Source: Dictyostelium discoideum (lineage: Eukaryota). Taken from it: DNA of 64,000 bases. Where the stretch lies: assembly GCA_000004695.1 (NCBI GenBank), contig CM000150.2, positions 128,001-192,000 on the forward strand. The letters are read 5' to 3'. Shown piece after piece: positions 4,935 to 34,940 of the stretch. The notes under the pieces were generated by a model. It was not told the origin of the DNA and ran no database searches. It saw only the letters and a program-made list of their open reading frames with translations. Positions within the stretch are counted from its first letter, which is position 1. Every line of letters begins with the position of its first letter. A program made the position numbers and the translations under genes.

Positions 4935-4939
4935 AATTT

Positions 4940-8752: not shown

Positions 8753-8773
8753 AAGACTGATCAATACCCATCA

Positions 8774-9034: not shown

Positions 9035-9135
9035 ATCTCAACTATCGGAAGCAGGACCCGCCATCATATTTAAAATGATAGGTGTGCCGCCATCTTCCAT
9101 GTACGCTATGAGTGTTGCGTTCTGAATTGTAGGAC

Positions 9136-10281: not shown

Positions 10282-10849
10282 ATTAGCTTTCCTTTTAAAC
10301 CAGCAAGCTTTCTTGGGGAGCAACAATCTAGTTTTAAAAGTTTCTTATTTCCTTGATGACACTTTTCTTCTTTTCTTTGGGAACAAGAAGCTTCATTGAT
10401 TTTGAATCGATTTGTAATCCGAGAAATGTAATTGATTGAGTTGGTTCAAGAACAATCTTTTCTAGATTCAGCTTGAAACCTAGTTTGACAAGTAAGTCCA
10501 TTGTCTTTTTGAGGTTGGATAAACATTCTTCTTTTGTTGAACCGACGATTAATAGATCGTCCAAGTAAGCGATTACGGACACGTTGATATCTCTCAACAT
10601 TCGAAGTACATGTCTTAACAACATTGTAAAGATACGAGGAGCTGTCGATAACCCGAACGGCATTGTTTTCCAACGGTAGTGCGAACCTTTCCACACGAAG
10701 CGGAATAAGTCTCTGTATTGCGGATCTACTAAAACGTGGAGGTAGGCTTTCTTGATATCGAGTTTTACCATGTAATAACCTTGTTTGACCATTGACGGTA
10801 GATTCTTGATTCCTTCCATCTTGAATGATTGGTTGTTGATGTAAGTGTT
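10282..10849 (-). pseudogene. DIRS-1 RT-region fragment (element coords ~1912-2480), target of another nested DIRS insertion
   Basis: 161-aa ORF 10334..10819 is identical to the RT core; abuts a plus-oriented left ITR at 10850. Confidence 0.8.
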
Positions 10850-11762
10850 TATTTATATTATCATATATATATATATTATGAATAACATTTATTTATTTGA
10901 ATTTCCCAAATATTTAAGATAATTTTTTAGAATGTTCTAGAACATTTGAAGAATAAAAAATTTTCAAAAGAAAAGTAAAAATTTCGAACAGGCACAATGA
11001 CGAGATAATTGCGCAAGGTCGAAAAACATAAAAATACCGAACCGACACAATGCACAAATTTGTGAAGGGTCGAAAACACTTATTTTTTTGAGTTTTGCGA
11101 AATTTTTAAGAAAATAAAAACGTATAAATAGTAGCACTAAAAACTAAAACAATTTGATTTATTTTATTTGGGAATTCCTCCTATATATATTTAAGATATA
11201 CACACACACAAATTTTATACAAATAATTATTTCTCTTTATTAATTTTTAATATTATTATTTTTCTCATATTATAATTTTAGATATCAAAAATAAAATATG
11301 TCTACAACTGTTAATAATAATTATACCTCTAGTAGTAGTACCTCTGCCTCTAATAGCGCTGAATCCTTTGATTTAAGAATGAAATCAATGGAGGATCAAA
11401 TCAACAACCTTTCTTTAGACTTTACAAGATTCATGAAAGAACCTATGTTCTCATCTAATACCAATTCACGTAGCCAACCTTCTCATGATGATTCTGACAC
11501 TGAGAATGAACAAAGTGAAGATGAATCAAGTAACAATGTCGATGTTCCAACCGATTATAAATTATCCGATACCTTACTTGGTCAGTACAAACATATGGTA
11601 AACAATCAAGGTTTACTCGTCGAAGAAGAATGTATCCTCAAGAAAGATGAGATATCCGAATTGAATAAAGTATTCAACTTTCCATCCAACTTCCAAGTCA
11701 ACGTCGCTCCATTCGGTACACCTGAAGGTATTACTGTATCATCCAACGTCAAGAACAATGAT
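10850..11762 (+). mobile_element. DIRS-1 5' fragment: left ITR plus first 155 codons of ORF1, then truncated
   Basis: ITR 10850-11180, HSE at ~10930, ORF1 11298..11765 ends in stop where homology is lost. Confidence 0.8.
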
Positions 11763-11765
11763 TAA
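11298..11765 (+). pseudogene. DIRS-1 ORF1, 3'-truncated
   Basis: 155 aa identical in register to ORF1 N-terminus. Confidence 0.75.
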
Positions 11766-12419
11766 TGTAAAAAAATAAAAAAAAATAATAAAAAAAATGA
11801 AACCATAAAACATAAATAAAATGATATGTTTTATTTTTTAATTTAATTTTGTATAAATATTTGTGAATACAATGAGAAATAATATACCGGGTTACACTGA
11901 ATTATATAAATAATAACATAATCTTTCTGAAAAACTTATTAATTTTTTTTTTTTTTTTTTTTTATTTTTTTATTTTTTTTTTTTTTAGTAATTGTTGACT
12001 AAAACCTATAAATATTTTCATTTATGTAACTACTGTATTCTAAACTTAACTATAATTATATATTTGATATGTGTTTATTAATAATTTACCATTATAAATT
12101 GTAAAATAATTTTTAATTTTTTTTTTTTTTACCTTTTTTTTTATCTTTAATTTTTTTTTATCTTTTTTTTTTAACCTTTTTTTTTTATCTTTTTTTAACC
12201 TTTTTTTTATCTTTTTTTTTTTTTTTCTAAAATATTATTGCTACATTTGTTGTTAAAAAAAAATAGGAATTTTATTTTTTTTTTATATTTTTTTTCATCA
12301 CACATTCACAAACATGCTTTATTTTTTAAAAAAAAAATATTTAAATTAAAAAAACATGCTTTATTTTTTTTTACAAAAATAAATTTTTTTTTTTTTATTT
12401 TTTTTTTTAAACCTATAAA

Positions 12420-13121
12420 CACAGCAAAGAAAAATGCACCTTTAAAGCAAATTTAAAGTAAAGTTGATTTAAATTGGATTTAAATTGAATTTAAAGCCGC
12501 GTTTAAAAAATTCATTTTTAAGGTAATTTTTAAGGTAATTTTTAAGATATTTAAAAATGCCTTTAAAATTTGCTTAAAAATTTATTTTAAAGGTAATTTT
12601 AAAGGTGATTTTTAAGGTAATTTTTAAAATGATTTTTAAGATATTTAAAAATACCTTTAAAATTTATTTTAAATTAATTTTAAATAGGATTTAAAGTAGA
12701 TTTAAAGTAGATTTAAAGTGAATTTAAATTTCCTTAATATATAAATTTAAGGTTTTTAATAAAAAAGATCTAATTATAGATAAAAAAAATGGGGATAAAA
12801 TATTCTATCATTTTTAAATTTTCATCAAAGCAATCAAATGGTCGGGGGATCGAATCCCTTTTGGTAATTTTTGAAAAAATTAAAAAAAAAAAATTTAAAA
12901 AATTTATCCGTTAAATAACGGCTTCGAACTCAGGACCTCGCTTTTAAAGCGATTAAAAAGGTAATTTTAAAGGTAATTTTAAAGGTAATTTTAAAGGTGA
13001 TTTTAAAGTAACCTTAAAAATTACCTTTCAAATTACCTTTAAAATTGCTTTAATTCAGGACTTTAAAGCAAATTTAAATTTAATTTAAAGCGAATTTAAA
13101 GGTGGTTTTTTCTTTGCTGTG
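12420..13121. mobile_element. MITE-like non-coding TIR element (termini cacagcRaagaaaaa...ttttcttYgctgtg), DDT/thug-like Dictyostelium DNA-transposon derivative; family assignment uncertain
   Basis: ~28-bp imperfect terminal inverted repeats, subterminal ggtaattttaaagg repeats, internal T-arm-like motifs. Confidence 0.6.
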
Positions 13122-13473
13122 AAATATTTTGCTTTTTTTTTTTTTTTTTTTTTTTTATTATTTTTTTTTACCAACACATAACGACTCTTCCTTACTTATA
13201 ATATATAAGCAAATAACATTAAAAAAATTGTTAAATTATTTACATAACTTTTACGTAAAAACGAACGGATTTTTATTTTTATTTTTATTTTTTTTCAATT
13301 TTTTTTTTTTTTGTTTCGGTTATTATTTTTCAGACTTAAATTATTATTTATAAATTAAATATAAAAAATAATATTGCATCATCTGGAAATGGTAATTATT
13401 TAAATTGATATTATCCAACTTCGCTTATTTTAAATAAAAATGAAACTGCACTAAATCAAAACTGGTAAGGTAA

Positions 13474-14027
13474 GATGATTTTTAAGGTAATTTTTAAGAT
13501 AATTTTTAAGATATTTAAAAAATACCTTTAAAATTTATTTTAAATTAATTTTAAATAGGATTTAAAGTAGATTTAAAGTATATTTAAAGTGAATTTAAAT
13601 TTCCTTTAAGTATAAATTTAAGGTTTTTAATTAAAAAGATCCATTTTTAGATCAAAAAAATGGGGATAAAATATTCTACCATATTTAAATTTTCATCAAA
13701 GCAATCAAATGGTGTAATGGTTGATGAGACTATCCTTTGATAGAGGGTCGGGGGATCGAATCCCTTTTGGTAATTTTTGAGAAATTAAAAAAAAAAATTT
13801 TAAAAAATTTATCCGTTAAATAACGGCTTCGAACCCAGGACCTCGCTTTTAAAGCGATTAAAAAGGTAATTTTAAAGGTAATTTTAAAGGTAATTTTTAA
13901 GGTGATTTTAAAGTAACCTTAAAAATTACCTTTAAAATTACCTTAAAAATTGCTTTAATTCAGGACTTTAAATTCGCTTTAAATTAAATTTAAATTTGCT
14001 TTAAAGGTGGTTTTTTCTTCGCTGTGT
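13474..14027. mobile_element. MITE-like TIR element, 5'-truncated copy
   Basis: Matches internal and right-terminal parts of 12420-13121; ends ...ggtggttttttcttcgctgtg. Confidence 0.55.
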
Positions 14028-14735
14028 TAATGCCGATTTTTTTCATTTTTTGTTTTGTTTCTAATTTTATTTTGAGGATTTGAAAAATCTTGTTTATTTG
14101 GTTTTGAATTGTGAAAGTCAATAATATCTTTTTGATTTCTAAAATTTCCTTCTTTTAATAAATAATCGACACCTCTTGGTTTATCACATGTATGACATGA
14201 GAAATCATTGCAATTATAATGGTTAATCCTACAAGATGATCTAAATTCTGTTATATGCATTGTTAATCCATATGGTATAATTTCATAATCATTTTCATTA
14301 TTATCTTTAATTTTTAATTTATTATTAAATTGCGCTGAAAATAATTTTTTAATTGTTTGATGTATATTGTGAAACCATTCTTTTGGAACAATAAAAAAAA
14401 CAATTTTATTATTTTTAAAAAATGGACCAACATAATTTTCAAAATCTACCAATAATGTATAATCTGATCTACCTTGATGACTCATTCCTTCACTAAATAT
14501 TCTTAATAAAATAAATTTATATAAAATTGAATTTTTTATTTTATTAAACTGTTCTCCAGATTTATAATTTTTATAAATACCTTGCTCATAGTCTTTTGAG
14601 AAATCTAAATATTCTAAAAAATTTTTTTTTTCAATTAATAATTTAACAACTGAATAAATTTCAAAATAAAAAATTGACTCTTCATTTGTAACTCAAAAAG
14701 TGACCATCGATAGGTAAATTTGCTAAAAATATAGA
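14027..14735 (-). pseudogene. Fragment of a divergent paralogue of the 30505..33024 transposase (covers ~aa 255-485), truncated where the MITE terminus at 14027 begins
   Basis: ...SIFYFEI...LLRIFSEGM...GLTMHITEFRSSCRINHYNCNDFSCHTCDKPRG aligns to the full-length protein; stop codon directly abuts cacagcg. Confidence 0.55.
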
Positions 14736-14743
14736 ATCCATAC

Positions 14744-14783
14744 ACAGCGAAGAAAAAACCACCTTAAAAGCAAATTTAATCTA
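14744..14783. repeat. Solo TIR of the MITE-like family
   Basis: cacagcgaagaaaaaaccaccttaaaagcaaattt, no matching partner nearby. Confidence 0.5.
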
Positions 14784-15410
14784 AAAAAAAAACAAAAAAA
14801 GTATTATTTTAGATTTCTTCAACTTCATCAATAATATCAATGCTTTCAAAACCAATCACCAGTTCTTTTAAAATAAATTGATACTACAATTAAATAATAG
14901 CTGGTAAGTTAATATAATTTTTTTTTAAAAAAAAAAAAAATTAAAAAAAAAAAAAAAATAAATAATAATAATAAAATAAAATAGATAGACTAATTTGAAA
15001 AATAATAATTATATTTTAGGTTACCTTTCTTATTATACCAACAACCACTTCTTTTCAATCAAATTGATACTTCACTTATATAATAACTGGTAAGTCAATA
15101 TAATTTTTTTTTTTTAAAAAAAAAATAATAATATAAAATAAAGAGATTAATATAATTTAAACAATTATATTTTAGGTTGTTTCTTCTTTTATTAGAACCT
15201 GTAAAGTAAATGCTTTTGGTACAAATTATAATGGAAATAAAGTTCTGCTTTTCAAATTAGTCAATTATAAATGTTGTATTACCATTAAATAAAAAAAATT
15301 TCTGATTTCAAATACTTTTACTTTTTAATTAATTCTTTTTTTTTTTTTTTTTTTTTTAAATTTATTTTAAATTATTATTATAAAATGTTATTTTTAATTT
15401 TTATTTTTAA

Positions 15411-15715
15411 GTATTCTTATTAAGTGAACTTTATAATTACCCTTAATAATTACCCTTATTAATTATAATTAATAATTCCACTTAATAGTTATACTTAATA
15501 ATTATACTTAATAATTTTAATTATTAATTATATTTTATTATTATACTTAATAATTATGCTTAATAAATATACTTTTTAATTATACTTAATAAATATACTT
15601 AATAAATATACTTTTTAATTATACTTATTAATTATACTTAATAAATATACTTAATAATTATACTTAATAATTATACTTAATAAATATACTTATTAAGTAT
15701 ACTTAATAATAGTAC
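15411..15715. repeat. AT-rich tandem satellite (unit ~ATACTTAATAAATATAC / TTATACTTAATAA)
   Basis: ~18 imperfect tandem units visible by eye. Confidence 0.6.
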
Positions 15716-15719
15716 TATT

Positions 15720-16989
15720 TACGTTCCTACTTTAAAGATGCTTTTAAGTATTTTTTTTCGCCCCTGTGGAGATTAACACCCTCATTTAGGGGATGTCTTG
15801 ACCAGAACACAGGTTATCCCCTTATTTTTTCTTTTAATTCAATGGAGGAATGTCATGCCATGTAAACCTTTTGATTTTGGTAACAGGACAAAACGCACTG
15901 CAGCGGTCGATAAAGCCAAGCGAGTTGCTAATCCAATTCGTCGTACTCAGTTACTGAAGAAGATTCGTTAATGACTGATCGGAAAGTCAGCATCGCTAGA
16001 ATGGTAGATTGTCGTTGAGATGCAGGGCGTAAAGCCCAGCTATTGGCAAAGATGTAAGCGGCTTAAGAGCCCCTAATTAGTATCCGCGGTCACGGCCGCA
16101 CATCCTAGCCTATGGGCTCACACCAATGCGTAATATGGTAGCAAAAATCATGTCAGATGAAGACATCCCAGATCATGATACCCGTACATGGTATTGTCTC
16201 CAGTATCCAATAACCTCAATCTGCCATCAAACCAAATTATAATATTTAAAAAAAAAAATTTGAATCTCAAAAATCATTTTCTAGATCTGAAAAAACCCAC
16301 TTAAATTATTATTAAATTACTATTTTTTTTAATAATTTAGTAAATAGATATTTTAAGTCATAAATTAAGCGATAAAATCTATTTTTTTGGTTAACCAGCA
16401 TAGTCTAGGTGTTTATCTATTTAATATGTTTTTTGTGGATAATAAAGCATATTTCAATCACTAATGATATTTATTAAATTTATTAAATTTGTTTATTTTT
16501 TTTTTCCGTGATGGAAAATGGTAAGACCATTAGTTCGTTCTGCATTGCCCATTACATCACCACTTCTTACATGTCAGCGTCTGGTGAAGTTACGCTGGGT
16601 GATGCAGCCGATAAAGAGACACAGTTCGCTATTAACTCGACTGGATCGATTAATATGTAAGCGCCACGTTTTGTTCTGAAGGGTATTCGGGATGAGAGAA
16701 CACCTGTTTTTGAATGCTCATGAATTATCCAGCATAGTATGTGGAATTCTATAGACCCTATTACCAGAAATACGACCACGGAAGATCTTGGTTCGCAACG
16801 CGTTTGCTGAAGTGGTTCACACACAACTATCCAACAGCGGTGATTGATGTGGTTAAGTCCGTGGCCCTGGTTCTTGTTAAACATCGCGATTTGATTGGTA
16901 ACCCATCATTCATTGACACAGAGTGGTTTTTGGATGGTGAGTGTTTGCGTCATCTTAATAACGCACTGGTCATGGAAAACGAACCGGTT
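15720..16989. other. GC-normal island B, prokaryote-like
   Basis: Ends exactly at DIRS left-ITR terminus 16990; contains SD-preceded small ORF. Confidence 0.55.
15856..15972 (+). CDS. Small basic ORF (MPCKPFDFGNRTKRTAAVDKAKRVANPIRRTQLLKKIR)
   Basis: GGAGG 6 nt upstream of ATG (caatGGAGGaatgtcATG). Confidence 0.3.
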
Positions 16990-17025
16990 TATTTATATTA
17001 TCATATATATATATATATATTATGA
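16741..17025 (+). CDS. Hypothetical ORF in island B, runs into the DIRS ITR, probably truncated
   Basis: GC-normal codon usage; no recognisable motif. Confidence 0.2.
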   Translation: MEFYRPYYQKYDHGRSWFATRLLKWFTHNYPTAVIDVVKSVALVLVKHRDLIGNPSFIDTEWFLDGECLRHLNNALVMENEPVYLYYHIYIYIL

Positions 17026-17079
17026 ATAACATTTATTTATTTGAATTTCCCAAATATTTAAGATAATTTTTTAGAATGT

Positions 17080-17101
17080 TCTAGAACATTCGAAGAATAA
17101 A
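17080..17101. promoter_or_regulatory. Perfect 4-unit heat-shock element in DIRS ITR (GAAtgTTCtaGAAcaTTCgaag)
   Basis: Alternating GAA/TTC at 5-bp spacing. Confidence 0.55.
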
Positions 17102-17443
17102 AAAAATTTTCCAAAGAAAAGTAAAAATTTCGACCCGGCACAATGATGCGATAATTGTGCAAGGTCGAAAAACTGAAAAATTCGGAACCGACACTATGTA
17201 CAAAGTTGTGAAGGGTCGAAAACTCTTATTTTTTTGAGTTTTGCGAAATTTTTAAGAAAATAAAAACGTATAAATAGTGGCACTAAAAACTAAAACAATT
17301 TGATTTATTTTATTTGGGAATTCCTCCTATATATATTTAAGATACACACACACACAAATTTTATACAAATATTTATTTCTCTTTATTAATTTTTTATATT
17401 ATTATTTTTCTCATATTATAATTTTAGATATCAACAATAAAAT

Positions 17444-19357
17444 ATGTCTACCACTGTTAATAATAATGATGCCTCTAGTAGTAGTGCCTCTGCCTCTAAT
17501 AGCGCTGAATCCTTTGATTTAAGAATAAAATCAATGGAGGATCAAATCAACAACCTTTCTTTAGCCTTTACAAGATTCATGAAAGAACCTATTTTCTCAT
17601 CTAATTCCAATTCACGTAGCCAACCTTCTCATGATAACTCTGACACCGAGAATGAACAAAGTGAAGATGAATCAAGTAACAATGTCGATGTTCCAACCGA
17701 TTATCAATTATCCGATACCTTACTTGGTCAGTACAAACATATGGTAAACAATCAAGGTTTACTCGTCGAAGGAATCAAGAATCTACCATCAATGGTCAAA
17801 CAAGGTTATTACATGGTAAAACTCGATATCAAGAAAGCCTACCTCCACGTTTTAGTAGATCCGCAATACAGAGACTTATTCCGCTTCGTGTGGAAAGGTT
17901 CGCACTACCGTTGGAAAACAATGCCGTTCGGGTTATCGACAGCTCATCGTATCTTTACAATGTTGTTAAGACCTGTACTTCGAATGTTGAGAGATATCAA
18001 CGTATCCGTCATCGCTTACTTGGACGATCTATTAATCGTCGGTTCAACAAAAGAAGAATGTTTATCCAACCTCAAAAAGACGATGGACTTACTTATCAAA
18101 CTAGGTTTCAAGTTAAATCTAGAAAAGAGTGTTCTCGAACCAACTCAATCAATTACGTTTCTCGGATTACAAATCGATTCAAAATCAATGAAGCTTCTTG
18201 TTCCCAAAGAAAAGAAGAAAAGTGTCATCAAGGAAATAAGAAACTTTTTAAAACTAGATTGTTGCTCCCCAAGAAAGCTTGCTGGTTTAAAAGGAAAGCT
18301 AATTGCACTGAAAGATGCAGTTATCCCATTCAGACTTTACACTCGTCGAACAAACAAGTTTCACTCTCAGTGTCTGACTCTAGCCAATGGAGATTGGGAT
18401 CAATCATTCCACATTCCTCAAGATGTCAAGTCAGAGATTTCACATTGGTTAACAGTTCTAAACCAATGGAATGGAAAAGAAATCAGTCTGTTTCCAAGTT
18501 ACGACTATGTTCTTACAACCGATGCCTCGGAATCAGGTGCAGGTGCCACACTCAAGAAAGGAAGCAAAGTAATCAAAACTTGGTCATTCCAGTGGTCAAT
18601 AACTCAATCAAACATGTCGTCAAATCGTCGAGAAATGCTCGCGCTGCTGATGGCCTATCAAGCGCTATGTCAGAAACTGAACAACTGCAAGCTGAAGATT
18701 CAAACCGACAACACTACCACTCTCTCTTACATCAATCGCCAGGGTGGTCAGATACAGGATCTCTCAGTTCTGTTCGAACAACTTTGGAAACAATGCCTCA
18801 AGAAGAAAGTGAACTTGATTGGAGAGCATATTCCAGGATTCTTCAATGTAAAAGCCGACCACCTCAGTCGTCTTTCAGAGATGAATCACAAATCATCGTC
18901 CAGAGTAATCAAGAGTTACAACTGGCAACTGAAGAAGGAAGTGTTCAATCGCATCCAACTTCAATTCGGTCAAATACAGATGGATCTGTTCGCATCTCAC
19001 TTCAACCATCAAACGAACAACTACTCAACAATCAGAATGAATGCACTCCACCTCGATTGGAGTCAATGGAAGCAATGTCTGGCCTTTCCACCACCCATTC
19101 TTTTGCCTTCTATCCTGGAGAAGATGAACTCATCCAGTTCGAAGAAGGTTTCTATAATACTGATCTTCCCAATCTGGAGATCAGCAACTTGGTATCCGAT
19201 GATTCAAGCTCAAGTTCCTCGTCATCATCGTCACATGTTTCCTCAAGTACTGGGAACATTCCAAGAAGTATTGACCAAACAATCAGTAGAGTCGATACCA
19301 ATCCAGATTCAACAACGTTGGAAGCTGGGGATTATTCAACTTTCCAATCTCATGTAA
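17444..19357 (+). CDS. DIRS-1 ORF1(N-terminal 108 aa)-RT/RNase H fusion ORF created by the deletion
   Basis: ...NNQGLLVE|GIKNLPSMVKQGYYM...; 637 aa open. Confidence 0.8.
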   Translation: MSTTVNNNDASSSSASASNSAESFDLRIKSMEDQINNLSLAFTRFMKEPIFSSNSNSRSQPSHDNSDTENEQSEDESSNNVDVPTDYQLSDTLLGQYKHMVNNQGLLVEGIKNLPSMVKQGYYMVKLDIKKAYLHVLVDPQYRDLFRFVWKGSHYRWKTMPFGLSTAHRIFTMLLRPVLRMLRDINVSVIAYLDDLLIVGSTKEECLSNLKKTMDLLIKLGFKLNLEKSVLEPTQSITFLGLQIDSKSMKLLVPKEKKKSVIKEIRNFLKLDCCSPRKLAGLKGKLIALKDAVIPFRLYTRRTNKFHSQCLTLANGDWDQSFHIPQDVKSEISHWLTVLNQWNGKEISLFPSYDYVLTTDASESGAGATLKKGSKVIKTWSFQWSITQSNMSSNRREMLALLMAYQALCQKLNNCKLKIQTDNTTTLSYINRQGGQIQDLSVLFEQLWKQCLKKKVNLIGEHIPGFFNVKADHLSRLSEMNHKSSSRVIKSYNWQLKKEVFNRIQLQFGQIQMDLFASHFNHQTNNYSTIRMNALHLDWSQWKQCLAFPPPILLPSILEKMNSSSSKKVSIILIFPIWRSATWYPMIQAQVPRHHRHMFPQVLGTFQEVLTKQSVESIPIQIQQRWKLGIIQLSNLM

Positions 19358-20322
19358 TGTCCTTCGCTCGTACTACAAATACAAAAACAGCTGAGCTGTT
19401 AATGAAGTCATGGGAACCTTCAACTCTCAAAGTATATAGCTCCAGTTATACAAGATTCCGCAATTTCTGTACGTTGAACTCTTTGAATCCAGCAAACATA
19501 ACCTTAGTTGTTTTCATGGATTATCTTACACATCTGTTCAAGCACAAACCTCCGTTAGCCTTCTCAACAATTAACGGTCATCGCTCTATGTTGAATCAGT
19601 TGTTACTCCTTAGGAATCAAACTGATATTGTTAATGATCCATTCATCACAAGAATTATGACTGGTATTCACAAGTTGCGTCCTTCATCTGCAAAGTATAA
19701 AGAGATATGGGATGCAAATCAAGTATTCAAGCACTTATCTACTGTCAAAGTCATCCCTAAGTACACATACACTGCGCTATTAAACAAGACACTTGTACTC
19801 TGTAAAATGTTTGGTTTAGCAAGATCATCAGACTTGGTGAAGTGGTCGTTCAAAGGTCTCATTATTACTACTGACTCAATCAAAGGTCCAGTCATTAATG
19901 CTAAAGAACAAAGAAGTGGTGTTGTTTCAATATTAGAATTAACTTCGTTAGATGATACAAACTCTCAAGTGTGCCCTGTTCGCCACCTTGCAACATACCT
20001 TAGAGCCTCTAAAGGAAGAAGAAAGCCCCATTCGGGTGACCCTGTCTTTATTAAGAATGAGGGTGAACCGCTCCAAGTTAATGATATTAACTCAATTGTA
20101 CTATCAACGCTCTCAAAGTCAGGCATTGATATTGTCAAGTTCAAATCTCACTCTACCCGTTCCGCTATGGCTTCTCTGCTGTTGTCCAATAACGTTCCGT
20201 TCCACGTTGTCAAGAAGATGGGTCGTTGGAAATCAAACGATACTGTAGATTCCTTCTACGATAAAAGAATCATTGGTGAAAAATCTGGTGGTTTCTTAAA
20301 TACTGTCGTCCAAATTTCATAA
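17890..20322 (+). CDS. DIRS-1 ORF2 (tyrosine recombinase C-terminal domain intact)
   Basis: HSTRSAMAS and GRWKSNDTVDSFY motifs present. Confidence 0.75.
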   Translation: MERFALPLENNAVRVIDSSSYLYNVVKTCTSNVERYQRIRHRLLGRSINRRFNKRRMFIQPQKDDGLTYQTRFQVKSRKECSRTNSINYVSRITNRFKINEASCSQRKEEKCHQGNKKLFKTRLLLPKKACWFKRKANCTERCSYPIQTLHSSNKQVSLSVSDSSQWRLGSIIPHSSRCQVRDFTLVNSSKPMEWKRNQSVSKLRLCSYNRCLGIRCRCHTQERKQSNQNLVIPVVNNSIKHVVKSSRNARAADGLSSAMSETEQLQAEDSNRQHYHSLLHQSPGWSDTGSLSSVRTTLETMPQEESELDWRAYSRILQCKSRPPQSSFRDESQIIVQSNQELQLATEEGSVQSHPTSIRSNTDGSVRISLQPSNEQLLNNQNECTPPRLESMEAMSGLSTTHSFAFYPGEDELIQFEEGFYNTDLPNLEISNLVSDDSSSSSSSSSSHVSSSTGNIPRSIDQTISRVDTNPDSTTLEAGDYSTFQSHVMSFARTTNTKTAELLMKSWEPSTLKVYSSSYTRFRNFCTLNSLNPANITLVVFMDYLTHLFKHKPPLAFSTINGHRSMLNQLLLLRNQTDIVNDPFITRIMTGIHKLRPSSAKYKEIWDANQVFKHLSTVKVIPKYTYTALLNKTLVLCKMFGLARSSDLVKWSFKGLIITTDSIKGPVINAKEQRSGVVSILELTSLDDTNSQVCPVRHLATYLRASKGRRKPHSGDPVFIKNEGEPLQVNDINSIVLSTLSKSGIDIVKFKSHSTRSAMASLLLSNNVPFHVVKKMGRWKSNDTVDSFYDKRIIGEKSGGFLNTVVQIS

Positions 20323-21313
20323 TATATATATATATATGATAATATAAATTAAAAATTTAATTTATTAAATTATATTTTATATTAAATATATATATATATA
20401 TTAGTCCCATCCCACCCGCCCTTAGTCGGAATTCCATAAATCAAATTGTTTTAGTTTTTATTGCCACTATTTATACGTTTTTATTTTCTTAAAAATTTCG
20501 CAAAACTCAAAAAAATAAGTGTTTTCGACCCTTCACAACTTTGTGCATAGTTTCGGTTCAGAATTTTTCAGTTTTTCGACCTTGTGCAATGATCGCGTCA
20601 TTGTGCCGGTTCGAAATTTTTACTTTTCTTTCGAAAATTTTTTTTATTCTTCGAATGTTCTAGAACATTCTAAAAAATTATCTTAAATATTTGGGAAATT
20701 CAAATAAATAAATGTTATTCATAATATATATATATATATTTAATATAAAATATAATTTAATAAATTAAATTTGTAATTAAACAGAACCCTGAGACGTATG
20801 TGGTCTACCAGAAGGTATCAAATGTAGCAAATCGCGTGCTTTAGAACAATCGCATGTATTCGGTGTGTTATGTATTCCAACGTACCATACCCGTAATCAT
20901 TCGTTTGGTTTCAAATATGTGTTGGTATCGAAGAACCTACAGCGTCTTCAACCAGGTGAGCACCTTGCGGCGGGGGACAATTTTTGCACACTCCCCTAAT
21001 TTGACAGAGGGCGGTGACTAAATACGGGTGTGAAACTAACGTGTGTTTCATGTCACTACCAGAAGTCGAACAGGATGGAATGATTGCTACGGAATCATTC
21101 GTTAATGCCATGGCGTGTGATAAGATGGAGAGTCGTTTATTGCAATGGGGTGAGAACAATGTACTTGTTAAACAACTACAAACCTTATCCAGTGATCGGG
21201 GAACAAATTCGGGATGATGGTTTTTTATTCGCAATGCGCAATATCGAATCTGATGTTGGTCTGGTCAACATGACTGCGAAAGCATTGATGGAAGTGGATG
21301 TCATCTTGGATAA

Positions 21314-21835
21314 ATGCGTGTACGGCGACCTAGTGCAACGGTAATCAACATTACCATCAAGTCCAACCGCCTGCGTACAGGTCGTTCAGAAGTTCAGTTC
21401 TATGATAAACAATCCGACCCCTATGAAAAAGCAGACCGTGACTTTCCTATCAATCTGCGTGGTGTGTATGAAACATTATTGAGTCGTCACCCACATACCT
21501 TAATGTTAGAGCCTAGTCTGAACACTTTGGTCAATAATGCCATATCTGATACCGGTGGTTTGGATCGTCGAATGAATGCCCAAACTGGTGCAATCTTGGC
21601 GATGGATAAAGGTGTTCAGATCTATAACAAGTTCCTATCGGCTACTGGCGTGCTTAGATCTCTTTTGTTAAATGCATTGTGGCAGGTGTGCGTTTCAAGA
21701 TCTCTGACAGTCATGAGGGTAAAGGTGTTATCGTTCATGTCTTTAAAGATGAAGATGCACCGACATGGCGTGCGTACAGATGTCATCGTGGATAACGCCT
21801 CTATCACTAAAACTCTATTGAACAGTTTGAGTTGA
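21314..21835 (+). CDS. Hypothetical protein (173 aa)
   Basis: GC-normal ORF, stop overlaps next start. Confidence 0.3.
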   Translation: MRVRRPSATVINITIKSNRLRTGRSEVQFYDKQSDPYEKADRDFPINLRGVYETLLSRHPHTLMLEPSLNTLVNNAISDTGGLDRRMNAQTGAILAMDKGVQIYNKFLSATGVLRSLLLNALWQVCVSRSLTVMRVKVLSFMSLKMKMHRHGVRTDVIVDNASITKTLLNSLS

Positions 21836-22452
21836 TGTCCAACAGTCCTATCTATCAGTCCAAAGCAAACCGTGATCATCATGTGAGCTGGGTGATTGAA
21901 CATGAAGTAGAGCTGCTAGCGTTAACTGATCGCTTGTATTATGGGGCAGAGCAGATTCTTCGCATTAAGAAGAACCATGACTTCCCAACATATCCTGCTC
22001 GTTATCGAGCACCTTATGGGAGGTTTGTGATAACTCGTGATCCAGTAATGATTGTACCAGTGTATATCATCCTGTTGGAAAAGATGAGGGAATATTTGGT
22101 TTCCTATGCAGTGCCTAAGTTAATGCACTTCGGTACTTTATCTATTATTACTCAAGTAGACAAGTACGCCCTCCCTTGGCGTAATGTACCAACTCGTTTG
22201 GCTGGTGAGTCAGACATTCGTCTGTTCTGGCGGCTGGTACACAAACCGTCTATTATCATTGCCAATACACCGGCAATGCAGAAAGCAGTAGGTAAGTTAT
22301 TGCGTCATGAGAATCCAATGCGTATTGACAATTTGATGGATGAAAGTGTATCTCCACTAGGTCGTAATCGACCAGTGCAGATGTATAAACACATGCAAGC
22401 TTGTCGTGGTATTCGCTTTGAACGTCAATTGTTAACTGAAGGGGCCGCTTAA
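21832..22452 (+). CDS. Hypothetical protein (206 aa)
   Basis: ATGA/TGATG translational-coupling junction with upstream ORF. Confidence 0.3.
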   Translation: MMSNSPIYQSKANRDHHVSWVIEHEVELLALTDRLYYGAEQILRIKKNHDFPTYPARYRAPYGRFVITRDPVMIVPVYIILLEKMREYLVSYAVPKLMHFGTLSIITQVDKYALPWRNVPTRLAGESDIRLFWRLVHKPSIIIANTPAMQKAVGKLLRHENPMRIDNLMDESVSPLGRNRPVQMYKHMQACRGIRFERQLLTEGAA

Positions 22453-22468
22453 AGCAGATCGGCAAGAT

Positions 22469-23059
22469 TTGCTAATGAATGGAGAGCAGATCTGGTCGTT
22501 AGATCCTCAGTGTAATAATCCTAAAGTTCAGGTTCTCGCTGAGGATAAAACTTTTGAGATGTTGGTGCGTCCTCTGATAGCCAGCTGGCCAATTCAGAAG
22601 TTCCAAGAAGGGATGGCTCTGGGTAAGCGGCATTTCTTAACAGGGTTCCGCATTTCAAACAAAGGTATCCGTAACATACTGACCGAAGGGTATCGTGACT
22701 ACGATATGATCATTGTACAACTAATGGGCACTGATCTGACCGGTGGGTTCATCGATGTAGTGAAATTTAACTCATTACAAGCCCGTACCATTAACCATAT
22801 CAACAACGCCTTTGTTGCAAGAATTCCTGAATATGTCACTACTGCAAGTATGGTTGACTATTTAGAGATTCTATTATTCGTCAAGTTCGAGCAGGTCTGG
22901 TTTAGTTCCAGAAATCTATCGGCTAGGCTTATAAGAAAGGACTGGGCCATATCAAAAACCCTGATAAATTTCCAAAGAATCAAATCGCTGAGGATATCAA
23001 ACAAGGCGGTGTTTCCGATGGCCAGACTGCTCAGGTGTTTATCTCATGTGGTTACCTAA
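22469..23059 (+). CDS. Hypothetical protein (196 aa)
   Basis: 16 bp after previous stop, same strand. Confidence 0.3.
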   Translation: MLMNGEQIWSLDPQCNNPKVQVLAEDKTFEMLVRPLIASWPIQKFQEGMALGKRHFLTGFRISNKGIRNILTEGYRDYDMIIVQLMGTDLTGGFIDVVKFNSLQARTINHINNAFVARIPEYVTTASMVDYLEILLFVKFEQVWFSSRNLSARLIRKDWAISKTLINFQRIKSLRISNKAVFPMARLLRCLSHVVT

Positions 23060-23718
23060 CCGACCATAACTCCAGGATCTTTGTTCGTCCTGTTACGGTC
23101 AAGGTATTGGTAGCTTCTATGAAGCCTTTGTTGAATCACATTCTGCTACTGAGGCCATGATCTTTACCAAGAAACCATTGGAGGATTCAGAATGGTTTAA
23201 CCGTAAGTTACAATTGGTCGGTTAGGCCATACAGCGCGTCCATCTTGGTGAGGATTGAGGTACTCAAATTACAGTACCGGTAATAATGCGTCCAGGCTGG
23301 TCCGGTGTAATGGCGGGTAAGTATTACGTAGACGACAGTGGTCAGATGTAAGCCATTCATGAGAAAGATGAAGGTAAACTGCTGCGTATAAGGTCACTAA
23401 TGTATTGTCAGCATAAATATCGTTCGGGTGTTTATGAGCGCTGTTATGGTAAGTTGGCTATGTCGATCCCGTATTTCAACGTACTGGGCAAGATAGGGAA
23501 AAACGAAGCCATTGCTGGGCACGTGTCCGCAACAGAATTTGATGCTGCTTTATAACAGAAGATGTTGTCCACTAAACACCTGGATACTTCTTCTACGGTG
23601 GATCCGTTTATCATTCATCGTGAAGATGCAATTTATATAACGTGTGGTATTCGTGATAATACTGCTGGTTTAAACCTACGACTGAAAGGGCAGAATGTAG
23701 CCAGATGACGTAGGGATT

Positions 23719-24099
23719 GTGCTTGATCAGTTCTTAGAGTTACTTAACCGACTTCTACAGGTGAATATCGTTCATGCTGAAATGATTCTGTACTCGGTAA
23801 TGGTGCGTGACCCAAGCAAGTTGGATCATTGCTTACCGCGCGCTAACGAACAACGGCAGTTTAGTTCTTATCACGAATGTATCGAATTCCCCAGTCTTTT
23901 GGTGCAGTTGCTGTATCAAGAGCAAGCGGATGTTATGATGAAACCCATGACGTTCTTAATTGATAACCGTCAGTCACATCGGCAGATAGATTATATTACC
24001 CATCTGTTCAAGCACAAACCTCCGTTAGCCTTCTCAACAATTAACGGTCATCGATCAATGTTGAATCAGTTGTTACTCCTTAGTATCTTTGCAGACTAA
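23719..24099 (+). CDS. Hypothetical ORF whose C-terminus is encoded by an embedded DIRS-1 ORF2 fragment
   Basis: ...ITHLFKHKPPLAFSTINGHRSMLNQLLLL is DIRS ORF2 sequence. Confidence 0.25.
   Translation: MLDQFLELLNRLLQVNIVHAEMILYSVMVRDPSKLDHCLPRANEQRQFSSYHECIEFPSLLVQLLYQEQADVMMKPMTFLIDNRQSHRQIDYITHLFKHKPPLAFSTINGHRSMLNQLLLLSIFAD
23994..24083 (+). mobile_element. 90-bp DIRS-1 ORF2 fragment embedded inside island C
   Basis: ~97% identical to 19534-19620 (copy-3 variant); flanks on both sides are GC-normal non-DIRS sequence. Confidence 0.8.
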
Positions 24100-24110
24100 G
24101 GGGTAGGGCG

Positions 24111-24506
24111 ATGCGCACTACGGCAACGCTTATCATTGGTAATCATGGATTTACGGTTAAAGACTACAATGATGAGTTCTACAGTAAGGCAAGGGCGTAC
24201 TGCGCACGTTTCGTTAAATACCGGATTGAATCTAAGGTCGTCCAAGGACGGAGATCTTTTGTCAAGGTACCAGATCGTGTATTCGGCTCAGCTTCGAAGG
24301 ACCGTAAAGAGCTACACATTAACTGTTTAGCTGAATTTAAACAATTTATGTTGAATAGTGGTTGGAACCCTGAACGGTTCAAAGAAATCACCAGGGAATT
24401 ACCTGAGGGACGAGATGTCAATTCCAATGACCACCAGGTTGCAGTACCAGTTAGAGAAAGATCCTTCTGGTATCACGACCCGAATCAATACATTGCAAAC
24501 GGGTAA
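24111..24506 (+). CDS. Hypothetical protein (131 aa)
   Basis: taAGGGGtagggcgATG SD-like context. Confidence 0.3.
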   Translation: MRTTATLIIGNHGFTVKDYNDEFYSKARAYCARFVKYRIESKVVQGRRSFVKVPDRVFGSASKDRKELHINCLAEFKQFMLNSGWNPERFKEITRELPEGRDVNSNDHQVAVPVRERSFWYHDPNQYIANG

Positions 24507-24615
24507 AGGAAAGACATTCTATGCCATATACAACATGTTCAAACTGCAGAAGCTCACTGGCATTATGTTAATGCCGAAGTACATCACGACTTGGCATACT
24601 GGCTTACATGACTTT

Positions 24616-25334
24616 CACAGCGAAGAAAAAACCACCTTTAAAGCAAATTTAAAGCAAATTTGATTTAAATTGGATTTAAATTGAATTTAAAGCCGCGTTT
24701 AAAAAATTCATTTTTAAGGTAATTTTTAAGGTAATTTTTAAGATATTTAAAAATGCCTTTAAAATTTGCTTTAAATTAAATTTTTAAGCAATTTTTAAGG
24801 TAATTTTTAAGGTGATTTTTAAGATAATTTTAAGATATTTTAAAAATACCTTTAAAATTTATTTTAAAGTAATTTTAAAGAAGATTAAAAGTAGATTTAA
24901 AGTGAATTTAAATTTCCTTTAAACATAAATTTAAGGTTTTTAATAAAAAAGATCTAGTTTTAGAACAAAAAAATGGTGATAAAATATTCTATCATTTTTA
25001 AATTTTTCATCAAAGCAATCAAATGGTGTAATGGTTGATGAGACTATCCTTTGATAGAGGGTCGGGGGATCGAATCCCTTTTGGTAATTTTTGAAAAAAT
25101 TAAAAAAAAAATTTAAAAAATTTATCCGTTAAATAACGGCTTCGAACTCAGGACCTCGCTTTTAAAGCGATTAAAAAGGTAATTTTAAAGGTAATTTTAA
25201 AGGTAATTTTAAAGGTAATTTTAAAGTAACCTTAAAAATTACCTTTAAAATTACCTTTAAAATTGCTTTAATTCAGGACTTTAAAGCAAATTTAAATTTA
25301 AAGCGAATTTAAAGGTGGTTTTTTCTTCGCTGTG
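24616..25334. mobile_element. MITE-like TIR element copy
   Basis: cacagcgaag... to ...cttcgctgtg. Confidence 0.6.
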
Positions 25335-25469
25335 AAAAGATAATAATTTAATAAACTTTAAATGTTTTTTGAAAAAACACATTTAGGGTCAGTGATTTTT
25401 TTTTTCACTGCGCTACTGTAGTGAAATTAAATAATAAAATTAACTACGCTACTGTAGTGAAATTTTATT

Positions 25470-26825
25470 GAAAATTCCCTACAACAATTTGGTTTGGTTG
25501 AGTGAAAATTTGTAATATCATCTTGTTTTCATAATGTACCTGATTGGCAAATAAATAAACCATCTCTTGGCTTGTCACATGTGTGACATGAATATTCATT
25601 TGAATTATGTCCATTAAGTTTACACGATGCTCTAAATTCTGGAATATCCATTGTCAGTCCCAACGGTACAACATCTATTTGTTCGTTTTCAATAATTAAA
25701 TTAAAGCCAATACCAATAAAAGATGAAAACAATGTCATAATGGTTTGATGAAAATTAAGTAACCAATCATTTGGTACTACAAATAATAATAATTTATTGT
25801 TTTTAAATTCATTTCCAATATAATTTTCTATATCCAGCATTATAGAATAATCTTTCTTGTATTGACACCGCATACTATCAGTGAATATTCTAAGTAAAAC
25901 AATTTTATTTTTATTTTTATTTTTCGAATCTTTAAATTGTTGACCACTTTTATAATTTGTATAAATTCCAGTTTCAAAATGTGTATCAAAATCAATTCTA
26001 TTAAAAAATTGCTTTTTATTCAATAAAGTTTCTAATACTTTTTTAATTTCAAAATAAAAAATTGAGTGATCATAATTTTTATTTATAAATGTTTCTCCTT
26101 TTATTTGAAAATTTTCCATAAATAATTTATCCATATATAGAGGTGTGTATCTTATTAGATTTAAATTAGTTTATTTTTGTCAATAAAACTTTTAAATTTT
26201 TCAAGTAGCTTTAAACTTATTGAGTTTTCAATTCCCAACATTAAAAATTCAATTTCAGTTTCATTTAATTTTTTTTTGATTTTTTATTATCTAAATTATT
26301 ATTTTGATTATTATTTATTGGTTCATTTTGACCATTTTCATTATTTTCATTATTTTCATTATTTTTTGCTCCATTTTGATCTATTATATTTTCATCATCA
26401 CTATGTCGCAACCTAATTGTATCATGATTTTCTTCATTATCAATTGTTTGATTGTTTTCATTATTTTCATTATTTTCTTGATAAATAATTTCATCTTGGT
26501 TTTGGTTACATAAATGTTTACATGGGTCATCTATATCATTTGTTGGATATTTTATTTTTTCACCAGTAATATCCATTGATTTTTTATAAAAGCTATCTCT
26601 TTTTGGATTATTTGTAATAATTTTACTTTGTTCATTTTTACATTTTTTGGTGTTGAAATGTCCATTTCCATCATAAAATTGTTTATAAGAACGGTAATAT
26701 GAAAGACAAAATGGACATATATTTTTATGCATAATATAATGAATAATAATATTTTTAAAATTCTTTAATTTTTCTCTGCAATTAATGCATGATATGTTAT
26801 TTAAATTCATTTTGTTTGCAGTCAA
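25470..26825 (-). pseudogene. Degenerate copy of the zinc-finger transposase gene (frameshift between 26134 and 26265, nonsense TGA at 25529, 3' truncated)
   Basis: ORFs 26265..26825 and 25529..26134 match aa 1-180 and 230-430 of the 839-aa protein; homology continues past the stop (KQDDITNFHS). Confidence 0.65.
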
Positions 26826-26902
26826 ATGACCTATCAGTGAATAATTGAATTAATTATAATTAACTCAGCATATTTTAAAAAAGATGGAGTTATCCTAGAA
26901 AT

Positions 26903-27472
26903 CACAGCGAAGAAAAAACCACCTTTAAATTCGCTTTAAATTAAATTTAAATTTGCTTTAAAGTCCTGAATTAAAGCAATTTTAAAGGTAATTTTAAAGG
27001 TAATTTTTAAGGTTACTTTAAAATTACCTTTAAAATTACCTTTAAAATTACCTTTTTAATCGCTTTAAAAGCGAGGTCCTGAGTTCGAAGCCGTTATTTA
27101 ACGGATAAATTTTTTAAATTTTTTTTTTTAATTTTTCAAAAATTACCAAAAGGGATTCGATCCCCCGACCCTCTATTAAAGGATACTCTCATCAACCATT
27201 ACACCATTTGATTGCTTTGATGAAAAATTTAAAAATGATAGAATATTTTATCCCCATTTTTTTGTCTAAAATTAGATCTTTTTTTATTAAAAACCTTAAA
27301 TTTATTTTAAAGCGATTAAAAAGGTAATTTTAAAGGTAATTTTTAAGGTGATTTTAAAGTAACCTTAAAAATTACCTTTAAAATTACCTTAAAAATTGCT
27401 TTAATTCAGGACTTTAAATTCGCTTTAAATTAAATTTAAATTTGCTTTAAAGGTGGTTTTTTCTTCGCCGTG
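26903..27472. mobile_element. MITE-like TIR element copy, inverted orientation, terminus ~90 bp upstream of the minus transposase pseudogene
   Basis: cacagcgaagaaaaaaccacctttaaattcgc ... cttcgccgtg. Confidence 0.6.
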
Positions 27473-27725
27473 CTTAAAAATCACCTTTAAAATAAACTTT
27501 AAAATGACCTTGAAAATTACCTTTAAAATTATCTTTAAAATGACCTTTAAAATTACCTTTAAAATGCTCTTTAAAATTAAGTTTAAAATGCCCTTTAAAA
27601 TTAACTTTATAATGCTCTTTAAAATTACTTAAAAATATGATTAAAAATTATATTAATAATTACATTTTAAAGTTCCTTAAAAATTGAATTTTAAAGTTTA
27701 TTAATAATTACATTAAAGCACCTTA
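27473..27725. repeat. Fragment of a second MITE family (C-family), reverse complement of 34259-34507
   Basis: Direct comparison of the two stretches. Confidence 0.5.
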
Positions 27726-28865
27726 CACAGCAAAGAAAAATGCACCTTTAAAGCCAATTTCAAGCAAATACAATTTAAATTTGCTTTAAATTGGCTTTAA
27801 ATTTGCTTTTTAAAAAGGTAATTTTAAGGATATTTTTAAGGTCATTTAAAATTACATTAAAAATGACCTTTTAAATTTATTATAAAGCGGTTTTTAAATA
27901 ATGTTTTAATCACTTTATAATAAATTTAAAAAAGTTATTTTTAATGTAATTTAAAATAACTTATCAATCCTTTTTTAAGCTTTTATTACACAGCAAAGAA
28001 AAAACCACCTTTAAATTCGCTTTAAATTAAATTTAAATTTGCTTTAAAGTCCTGAATTAAAGCAATTTTAAAGGTAATTTTAAAGCGAATTTAAAGGTGG
28101 TTTTTTCTTTGCTGTGTAATAAAAGCTTAAAAAAGGATTGATAAGTTATTTTAAATTACATTAAAAATAACTTTTTTAAATTTATTATAAAGTGATTAAA
28201 ACATTATTAAAACCGCTTATAATAATTAAAAGGCATTTTATGTAATTTAAGACCTAAAAATCCTAAATACCTTTTTAATGGCTTTAAAAGCGAGGTCCTG
28301 AGTTCGAATCCGTTATTTACGAATAATTTTTTAAATTTTTTTTTTATTTTTCAAAAATTACCCAAAAGGGATTCGATCCCCCGACCCTCTATCAAAGGGT
28401 AGTCTCATCAACCATTACACCATTTGATTGCTTTGATGAAAAATTTAAAAATGATAGAATATTTTATCCCCATTTTTTTGTGCTAAAATTAGATCTTTTT
28501 TATTAAAAACCTTAAATTTATGTTTAAAGGAAATTTAAATTCACTTTAAATCTACTTTTAATCTACTTTAAATCCTATTTAAAATTAATTTAAAATAAAT
28601 TTTAAAGGTATTTTTAAATATCTTAAAAATTATCTTAAAAATTACCTTAAAAATCACCTTTAAAATCACCTTTAAAATCACCTTTAAAATTGCTTAAAAA
28701 TTTATTTTAAAGCAAATTTTAAAGGCATTTTTAAATATCTTAAAAATTACCTTAAAAATTACCTTAAAAATGAATTTTTTAAACGCGGCTTTAAATTCAA
28801 TTTAAATCCAATTTAAATCAACTTTTCTTTAAATTTGCTTTAAAGGTGCATTTTTCTTTGCTGTG
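27726..28865. mobile_element. Nested cluster of MITE-like copies including a 128-bp mini-element (27989-28116) flanked by inverted repeats
   Basis: Multiple cacagcaaag / ctttgctgtg termini; 27900-27996 is inverse of 28127-28225. Confidence 0.5.
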
Positions 28866-34258: not shown

Positions 34259-34507
34259 TTATAAATAAGGTGCTTTTAAATGTAATTATTAATAAACTTT
34301 AAAATTCAATTTTTAAGGAGCTTTAAAATGTAATTATTAATATAATTTTTAATCATATTTTTAAGTAATTTTAAAGAGCATTATAAAGTTAATTTTAAAG
34401 GGCATTTTAAAGGTAATTTTAAAGGTAATTTTAAAGGTCATTTTAAAGGTAATTTTCAAGGTCATTTTAAAGTTAATTTTAAAGGTAAGTTTAAAGGTGA
34501 TTTTAAA
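34259..34507. repeat. C-family MITE part, interrupted by the Skipper insertion
   Basis: Other half at 63518-63667 ends with TIR cacagcgatgaaaattacacc(rc); TTAAA at both junctions. Confidence 0.5.
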
Positions 34508-34897
34508 TGTAAAAGTCACTCACACTAATCTTCAATCCATTGTCACATTTGTTCAATCTTAAATCAAACAGTCCAATCTTTAAAGTAATGTATTTTAATA
34601 TGAAGGATAGAAAGAGTGAAAGACTAATATCATAAAAGTAAACATACATAAAAGAGATAATTAAAAGTAAGGGCGTTATGAAACTAAACCGAAAATCAGA
34701 ATTTTTATTATTTTTTTTAAATTTTAATTTAATTTAATTTTTTTTAATTTAATTTTTTATTTTTTTGACTGAAAAAATAAAAAATTAAAAAATAAAAATA
34801 AAAATTAAATGAAATATTTTTACATGGAGATGCGCGAATTTGTTACGTTGTTGAGCTCATACTAACTTTAAATTAATTTAGTTTTGAGTCTCTAACA
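34508..34897 (-). repeat. Skipper 3' LTR (390 bp) followed by polypurine tract GAAGGAAGGGGAAGG at 34898-34912 (minus sense)
   Basis: Identical to 41115-41504; boundary defined by divergence from flank and by copy-3 LTR. Confidence 0.85.
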
Positions 34898-34940
34898 CCT
34901 TCCCCTTCCTTCTTTAGGCTAGCTATGGCTCAGAGGTGGA

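Follow-up and report, generated by a model that had tools for sequence, protein, structure and literature searches.

A DIRS-1 recombinase fragment inserted in jumbo-phage RNA polymerase remnants of the Dictyostelium discoideum chromosome 1 centromere

Results and Discussion

A 98-bp piece of the retroelement DIRS-1 is found at positions 23986-24083 of a 64,000-nucleotide stretch of Dictyostelium discoideum DNA (the window), close to the end of a broken gene that can be assigned by homology to a bacteriophage. It is likely that a dead fragment of jumbo-phage DNA, residing in the DIRS-1-rich centromere of chromosome 1, later received approximately 93-98 bp from the interior of DIRS-1 as filler during DNA repair, and that this piece has no function. 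The surrounding island is shown to be decayed phage DNA and the piece to come from DIRS-1; the piece is absent in phage relatives, has clean junctions and is present in independent assemblies. The mechanism of repair, its route and the uptake of the phage DNA from infected prey are inferred. Four other explanations were considered and rejected: a chimeric join, a functional chimeric gene, gene conversion, and the insertion of a full element with later deletion.

Phage origin of the island

The island around the piece spans positions 20779-24611. Judged by homology, it is a dead fragment of the genome of a phiKZ-like jumbo bacteriophage and contains the remains of the genes for the beta and beta' subunits of the non-virion RNA polymerase (nvRNAP), as well as the start of an SF2 helicase gene. 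A blastn comparison with phage genomes gave 21 records, all from jumbo phages, with an identity of approximately 67% over beta, beta' and helicase. Nineteen of these are Erwinia phages (Agricanvirus and relatives), and the remaining two are Salmonella phage SA002 and one Proteus phage. In the annotation of phage RAY the matching RNA polymerase genes are given as the non-virion RNAP subunits. The island is colinear with the genes of phiKZ-like Enterobacterales jumbo phages, including the intergenic spacer, and both order and spacing are those of AH06, SA002, SNUABM_48 and Desertfox.

The gene pieces, all on the plus strand, were defined by tblastn of the AH06 and SA002 proteins against the window. 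The beta pseudogene (20779-22440, the tblastn match beginning at 20776) covers residues 94-701 of the 701-704 residues of the phage subunit, so that its 5' end is missing. It consists of four pieces in frames 1, 3, 2 and 1, contains in-frame stops and lacks approximately 160 bp. The open reading frame (ORF) 21832-22452 matches phrog_3295, 'RNA polymerase beta subunit', with an E-value of 9e-45. The beta' pseudogene is present as residues 7-424 at 22460-23699 (frames 2, 1 and 3, with two frameshifts and several nonsense mutations) and, in frame 1, as residues 556 to approximately 649 at 23701-23985, which form the body of ORF 23719-24099. In this last piece the 93 residues of the tblastn match (556-648 at 23701-23979) are 72% identical to AH06 and 68% identical to SA002, and residues 2-87 of the ORF match positions 556-642 of 653 in phrog_3015 (E 3.7e-23). 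The assignment of beta' to phrog_3015 is based on family homology and on the beta, beta', helicase neighborhood, the full-length frame being no longer intact. The helicase pseudogene (24111-24615) comprises residues 1-182 with one frameshift, residues 1-120 being in frame 3 and residues 124-182 in frame 1. It matches phrog_16, 'DNA helicase' (E 4e-4), and its 3' end is cut by an AT-rich repeat.

Six ORFs of the island gave no matches in Pfam and were named by PHROGs. ORF 23719-24099 was regarded in a preliminary description as a prokaryote-like gene of bacterial style; the tblastn and PHROGs results show it to be a mechanical ORF that covers the end of the beta' pseudogene of a jumbo-phage nvRNAP.

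For an intact stretch of 206 residues, 175 phage records match at the protein level, the best with approximately 60% identity and the next group, other phiKZ-like phages, with approximately 34%. When the island's own allele (99%) is set aside, the closest of the cluster representatives from 1.84 billion proteins reaches 61% identity. No relative above approximately 61% protein identity was found; a scan of IMG/VR with exact peptide words and a plasmid search were both empty, and an exact look-up of ten ORF variants of the island among 15 billion proteins found none of them present. Since the best relatives are only 60-61% identical, the phage donor would be an unsampled member of this jumbo-phage clade.

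It is useful to compare the island with the nvRNAP operon of the phiKZ-like phages (Agricanvirus Ea35-70, RAY and AH06; SA002; Erwinia phage pEa_SNUABM_48). The gene order and the spacer are the same, with 50-72% protein and approximately 67% nucleotide identity. Unlike the phage operons, the island has lost both of its ends, contains frameshifts, nonsense mutations and a deletion of 131 codons, and is located on a eukaryotic chromosome; its GC content is 0.435, compared with 0.47-0.49 for the homologous phage regions and 0.35 for DIRS-1.

Borders of the island

The island starts where a DIRS-1 terminal repeat stops (20778/20779) and runs into an AT-rich repeat on the other side (24612); both of its ends are truncated. 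On the left it is abutted and truncated by the right terminal repeat of a DIRS-1 copy (20436-20778, plus strand), a sequence of which the window contains eight further copies that are 93-96% identical. The copy itself, 17768-20776, aligns with 1937-4943 at 97.5%. On the right it is truncated by an AT-rich dispersed repeat (24613-25337), of which the window holds at least ten copies with 80-91% identity. Going by the composition of the centromere given in PMC2665215, this repeat is probably a DDT-type element. Inside these borders the flanks of the DIRS-1 piece are single-copy in the window, and their GC contents are 0.435 (20779-23985) and 0.434 (24084-24611), in agreement with the earlier view that sequence of normal GC content and non-DIRS character lies on both sides.

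Decay of the island

Every gene piece in the island contains in-frame stops, at least seven of them in beta'. Within 23094-23699 four in-frame stops stand in place of the residues Q, C, K and S of the AH06 and SA002 proteins, and by reading of the codons each of the four appears to be one nucleotide away from a sense codon for the corresponding residue. At the deletion junction 23700-23701 (plus strand), residues 425-555 of beta' are missing (131 codons, approximately 393 bp), the tblastn pieces ending at residue 424 (23699) and resuming at residue 556 (23701). This deletion at 23699-23701 is clean and contains no filler. Lying only 285 bp upstream of the DIRS-1 piece, it represents another scar of repair or deletion.

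A second allele of the island is available as a Logan short-read contig (L003; SRR26869267, the same contig in 8 samples), which corresponds to window positions 20733-24030 with 98.85% identity. The species of these samples is inferred from their DIRS-1 flanks and not from metadata. Compared with the window, L003 has a dozen or so substitutions; it also lacks 4 bp (21488-21491), has 9 additional bp after position 23368 and carries a different 7-bp block at 22901-22907. The TAA stop of the window at 23349-23351 is CAA, a sense codon, in L003, which also has fewer stops than the window in two segments. These differences between the alleles, including TAA/CAA at 23349, indicate that the phage remnant is polymorphic and that its decay is still going on within D. 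discoideum.

Insertion site

In four phage relatives, AH06, SA002, SNUABM_48 and Desertfox, the beta' protein ends with the uninterrupted sequence ...RQPHP[A/M]D[S/E]IF(VD/K)*, in which the DIRS piece is absent. The stop codon is followed by a spacer of 10-14 nt and then by the ATG of the helicase. In the window the residues RQSHRQ are followed by IDYITHLFKHKPPLAFSTINGHRSMLNQLLLL (IDYITHLFK...LLLL), then by SIFAD*, and finally by GGGGTAGGGCG and ATG. The SIFAD* segment (24082-24099, plus strand) corresponds to the native last five codons and stop of the phage beta' gene and aligns with ...ADSIFVD* of SA002 and SNUABM_48 and with ...MDEIFK* of AH06 and Desertfox. It is followed on the same strand by the phage intergenic spacer (24100-24110) with the ribosome-binding-site-like GGGGTAGGGCG; SA002 and SNUABM_48 have GGGGTAAACC at this place, directly before the helicase ATG.

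The site has gained 93 bp net (94 bp on the assumption of a 1-nt upstream deletion) and has lost one codon (3 bp) at most. Since all four relatives are uninterrupted here, the DIRS piece represents a clean net gain with no more than 3 bp lost. The piece had been thought to supply the C-terminus of ORF 23719-24099. It accounts instead for residues of approximately 90-121 of 126, and the ORF is ended by the native SIFAD*.

The homology to DIRS-1 breaks off sharply on both sides of the piece. At the right junction AG or TAG is common to DIRS-1 (CTCCTTAG followed by G) and to the phage (..AGT ATC), which leaves the boundary ambiguous by 2-3 nt. At the left junction ATAG is one mismatch away from both the ATGG of DIRS-1 and the ACAG of SA002-type phages, and the boundary is ambiguous by approximately 4 nt. 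Any junction microhomology is short: 2-3 nt are shared on the right, and on the left there are 4 nt that could be derived from either the phage or DIRS-1. There is no target-site duplication at the insert beyond the flanking 3-nt TAG, and there are no terminal repeats.

The DIRS-1 piece and its possible donors

The inserted piece (23986-24083, plus strand) is an internal fragment of the tyrosine-recombinase ORF of DIRS-1, from the region of the SAM-like N-terminal domain. In a self-BLAST of the window its 98 bp match 19516-19613 on the plus strand and 5200-5103 on the minus strand with 94.9% identity (E 1e-38), and 3685-3782 with 92.9%; the exact counts are 93/98 for the first two copies and 91/98 for the third. 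An earlier reading gave the piece as 90 bp with approximately 97% identity to DIRS-1. The match to DIRS-1 is indeed real and far beyond chance (E 1e-38), but the figure of 97% is true only of an 80-bp core (78/80, 97.5%); over the 90 bp as a whole (23994-24083 compared with 19524-19613) the count is 86/90, or 95.6%. In addition, the homology begins 8 bp earlier, at 23986, and the partner coordinates given at that time (19534-19620) are shifted by approximately 10 bp.

The donor-type segment in the neighboring DIRS-1 copy (19516-19613, plus strand, 93/98) is located 4.47 kb upstream of the piece in the same orientation and is in phase within ORF 17890-20322. An equally close donor-type segment lies at 5103-5200 on the minus strand (93/98), and the third copy, at 3685-3782 on the plus strand (91/98), has two further differences. 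An alignment of the fragment to the DIRS copies, proposed previously as a way of finding its donor, was carried out for these three copies, which are those in the window that cover the segment. Two of them tie at 93/98, all five differences from these two are private to the insert, and no single copy could be selected as the donor. The insert-specific bases which distinguish the piece from DIRS-1 are ATAGATTATATTACC and CATCGATCAATG. Of the five differences from DIRS-1, four affect the third position of a codon (binomial P approximately 0.045), three of them synonymously. This third-position bias gives a weak hint that the true donor may have been a diverged, still-coding DIRS-1 variant that is absent from the window.

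The piece has the same codon phase as ORF 23719-24099 and as the DIRS-1 recombinase ORF 17890-20322, and it had been described correctly as in-frame. The DIRS-1 copy contains the domains RVT_1, RT_RNaseH and Dam in ORF 17444-19357 and Phage_integrase and SAM-like domains in ORF 19300-20322; the piece maps inside the region of the latter ORF where the SAM-like domain is detected. It is classified as a DIRS-1 fragment on the basis of nucleotide identity and of the RT/RNase H and tyrosine recombinase domains in the reference copies. Neither inverted terminal repeats nor an internal complementary region was found at the insert, where the homology consists of 98 interior bases only.

In ORF 17444-19357, the RT ORF of DIRS-1, the Dam-type N6-adenine methyltransferase-like domain (PF05869, E 2.9e-11) is located after the RNase H domain. 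A domain of this type is a known feature of DIRS elements.

Authenticity of the junctions

The possibility that the 98 bp were joined to the phage sequence by mis-assembly of the centromere or by a chimeric clone deserves attention. The window is a scaffold interrupted by two gaps of 100 N each (46494-46593 and 58470-58569), the contig between these gaps is 99.8% identical to 7435-19305, and the chromosome 1 centromere was put together manually (PMC2665215). Against such a chimera, another D. discoideum assembly (contig JBTAPE010000027.1 of GCA_054883475.1, called L005 here) covers window positions 20904-28092 at 99.96% and is identical over 23900-24170, a range that includes both junctions. 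L005 is taken as independent of the AX4 reference, which is an assumption. The diverged short-read allele L003, present in 8 samples, has the same left junction and the insert-specific bases. Furthermore, the phage sequence continues after the insert from the very point at which it was interrupted, an outcome not to be expected of a random mis-join. We consider an assembly or cloning chimera to be extremely unlikely.

The extent of this support differs for the two junctions. L003 extends from the junction between the DIRS-1 end and the island through the complete beta-beta' pseudogene and across the left junction into the first 45 bp of the piece, among which are three junction-proximal bases that differ from DIRS-1. 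It ends 45 bp into the piece, at the point where the sequence becomes identical to high-copy DIRS-1, as is expected of a short-read unitig. For the right junction, which L003 does not reach, support comes from the window and a single near-identical assembly, L005. The left junction and the insert-specific bases are common to L003 and the window, and this indicates, as far as the two sequences can be compared, that the insertion is older than the split of these alleles.

The preliminary description had left a choice between an island resident for long enough to receive a DIRS insertion scar and an artificial or chimeric join. The identity of L005 over 23900-24170 and the passage of L003 (8 samples) across the left junction speak against the join. 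The first alternative holds: the frameshifts, the nonsense mutations, the 131-codon deletion and the second allele mark the island as old resident foreign DNA, and the DIRS piece is an insertion scar in it.

Mechanism of the insertion

The insert is short, copied from elsewhere and free of element ends, while the recipient sequence is continuous with the loss of one codon at most; these are the characteristics of a filler insertion. The absence of terminal repeats, the apparent microhomology of 2-3 nt and the loss of no more than 3 bp fit filler DNA of break repair or of template switching. The following course of events may be proposed. Phage DNA would have been taken up from phage-infected prey bacteria. 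A fragment of it came to be fixed in the centromere of D. discoideum chromosome 1, which is rich in DIRS-1, and has been decaying since. The DIRS-1 piece was acquired only once the phage DNA already lay in the amoeba genome; a break or a stalled replication fork near the last beta' codons was probably repaired with approximately 93-98 bp copied from the DIRS-1 interior. The filler could have been obtained by either of two routes. In the first, end-joining would capture a fragment of DIRS-1 extrachromosomal cDNA or of other DNA; DIRS-1 is known to make linear single-stranded extrachromosomal cDNA (PMC7192593). In the second, a short microhomology would prime a template switch to a nearby DIRS-1 copy, such as the one located 4.5 kb upstream in the same orientation. 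DIRS-1 constitutes approximately 47% of the chromosome 1 centromere (PMC2665215). Both routes fit the evidence and are not separable here.

A complete DIRS-1 element could instead have transposed into beta', with later deletions leaving 98 internal bases. The high degree of fragmentation of centromeric DIRS-1 elements (PMC2665215) and the deletions in the island itself speak for this course. It would require, however, two independent deletions, each ending 0-3 bp from the insertion site with the phage flanks left intact, and the remnant is part of an interior ORF more than 1.1 kb from the nearest end of the element, without a trace of the terminal repeats. This makes the insertion of a full element improbable, though less so than the other rejected explanations.

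Gene conversion had been named earlier, beside insertion, as a possible origin of the scar. Gene conversion or ectopic recombination with a DIRS-1 copy would proceed through pre-existing similarity; DIRS-1 copies are plentiful and near, and the DIRS-1 recombinase belongs to the same fold family as phage integrases. However, the site is in an RNA polymerase beta' gene and not in an integrase gene. The four phage relatives have no DIRS-like sequence at this site, where they are shorter by approximately 93 bp, and the homology ends abruptly on both sides. Because the relatives lack any homology to DIRS-1 at the site, this origin is highly unlikely.

ORF 23719-24099 and gene model DDB_G0267346

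The preferred explanation, repair filler, assigns no function to the piece, and it is important to examine whether the chimeric ORF or the AX4 gene model DDB_G0267346 might nevertheless be a functional domesticated gene in which the DIRS-1 piece is coding. The insert preserves the frame and the original stop, the 133 codons of 23701-24099 contain no internal stop, and the AX4 annotation has a model at this place. Yet the ORF represents only the last 93 or so residues of a 655-residue subunit, and upstream of it the gene is broken by frameshifts, stops and the deletion. In the annotated model the DIRS piece is removed with an intron, and beta' remnants are joined to helicase remnants. Pfam finds no domain, no exact copy of any island ORF occurs among 15 billion proteins, and the second allele has a nonsynonymous change as well as indels elsewhere in the island. 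A functional gene is thus scarcely credible. ORF 23719-24099 arises incidentally, in that the frame runs on from the beta' remnant across the insert to the stop codon of the phage gene. Since the gene is broken upstream, the in-frame state of the piece carries no functional weight.

The model DDB_G0267346 (206 aa; 23286-24500) combines beta' sequence at 23286-23315 and 23737-23967 with helicase sequence at approximately 24168-24500, joined by predicted GT..AG introns. Within the predicted intron 23968-24167 lie the DIRS piece, the stop codon of the phage gene and the beginning of the helicase. The exons of this model and the protein DDB_G0267332, both from AX4 chromosome 1, match the window at 100%, and the window is accordingly the centromere region of AX4 chromosome 1 or a sequence identical to it. 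At least this one AX4 model, DDB_G0267346, is in all likelihood an artefact of annotation, a prediction assembled from the remains of phage pseudogenes, and it should be flagged accordingly.

Comparison with known systems

Filler DNA and templated insertions are known from repaired double-strand breaks, including the capture of Ty1 cDNA in yeast and insertions of the NUMT type. The DIRS piece resembles them in being short and copied from elsewhere, without element termini or target-site duplication. It also resembles them in the nearly complete retention of the flanks, in an apparent microhomology of a few nucleotides and in its source, a retroelement that makes extrachromosomal cDNA (PMC7192593). 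It differs from the studied cases in that the event is read from sequence and not observed, with cDNA capture and template switch both fitting. With canonical DIRS-1 retrotransposition it has in common the DIRS-1 sequence and the DIRS-1-rich centromere. In the canonical process the tyrosine recombinase inserts a complete element, preferentially into other DIRS-1 copies, whereas the piece described here has only 98 internal bases of the recombinase ORF, lacks the inverted terminal repeats and the internal complementary region, and is located in a non-DIRS target.

The scar thus belongs to a known class, templated or captured filler, and its host to another, decayed horizontally acquired DNA; the phage origin, as identified by homology, is the more notable result. 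The DIRS piece taken by itself is a routine repair scar. It could be acquired only inside the amoeba nucleus, and it is common to diverged alleles, so that it serves as a marker of residence: the surrounding island is genuine, long-resident chromosomal DNA and not contamination. The phiKZ-like jumbo phages are strictly lytic and have no integration machinery, which makes them an unusual donor of DNA. The presence of phage DNA in a bacterivorous amoeba is consistent with uptake from phage-infected prey.

The centromere of chromosome 1 has been described by Gloeckner and Heidel in 2009 as 86.5% repetitive, with DIRS, DDT and Skipper elements and scars of rearrangement (PMC2665215). The repeated motifs of non-transposon nature are described there as having neither coding capacity nor a difference in GC content. 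The word 'phage' is absent from PMC2665215, and its available passages mention no prokaryote-derived sequence. No report of jumbo-phage DNA in a D. discoideum centromere was found in the searchable literature, and a search of the literature for the gene identifier and for the run and assembly accessions gave nothing relevant.

A more speculative idea is that the centromeric DIRS-1 cluster acts as a trap, storing ingested foreign DNA and tagging it with DIRS-1. If this were true, transcripts of foreign segments would be recognized by the abundant DIRS-1 siRNAs and RrpC-dependent silencing would spread over them, in the manner of a piRNA cluster in an amoeba. The one observation behind this idea is that the DIRS-1 piece lies within a segment treated as transcribed by automated annotation, and we regard the idea as very unlikely.

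Other features of the window

A second island of normal GC content (approximately 0.44) and non-DIRS sequence is located between DIRS-1 terminal repeats at 8754-10270, with a second copy at 47918-49434. On its minus strand there is a tRNA-like sequence (9678-9813) with a 71-nt insertion in the anticodon loop, to which the Rfam tRNA model gives 31.6 bits (E 3e-4); ARAGORN reported no tRNA in the island. The tRNA-like sequence is followed by a GGAG-ATG ORF with the N-terminus MAVKFSTLPAAQTITGQEIVAISQ, which is annotated in AX4 as DDB_G0267332. We take this N-terminus to resemble those of phage tail fibres. The island has no phage match by DNA comparison, tblastn or PHROGs.

The window also contains an 11.9-kb duplicate, in which 7435-19305 and 46599-58469 are 99.77% identical, and the second copy exactly fills the contig between the 100-N gaps at 46494-46593 and 58470-58569. 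It could be that 46599-58469 entered the scaffold as a redundant contig, in which case the segmental duplication would not be real. Two other pairs of blocks are nearly identical as well: 34505-39886 and 41112-46493 (99.6%), and 43180-46493 and 58570-61883 (99.5%).
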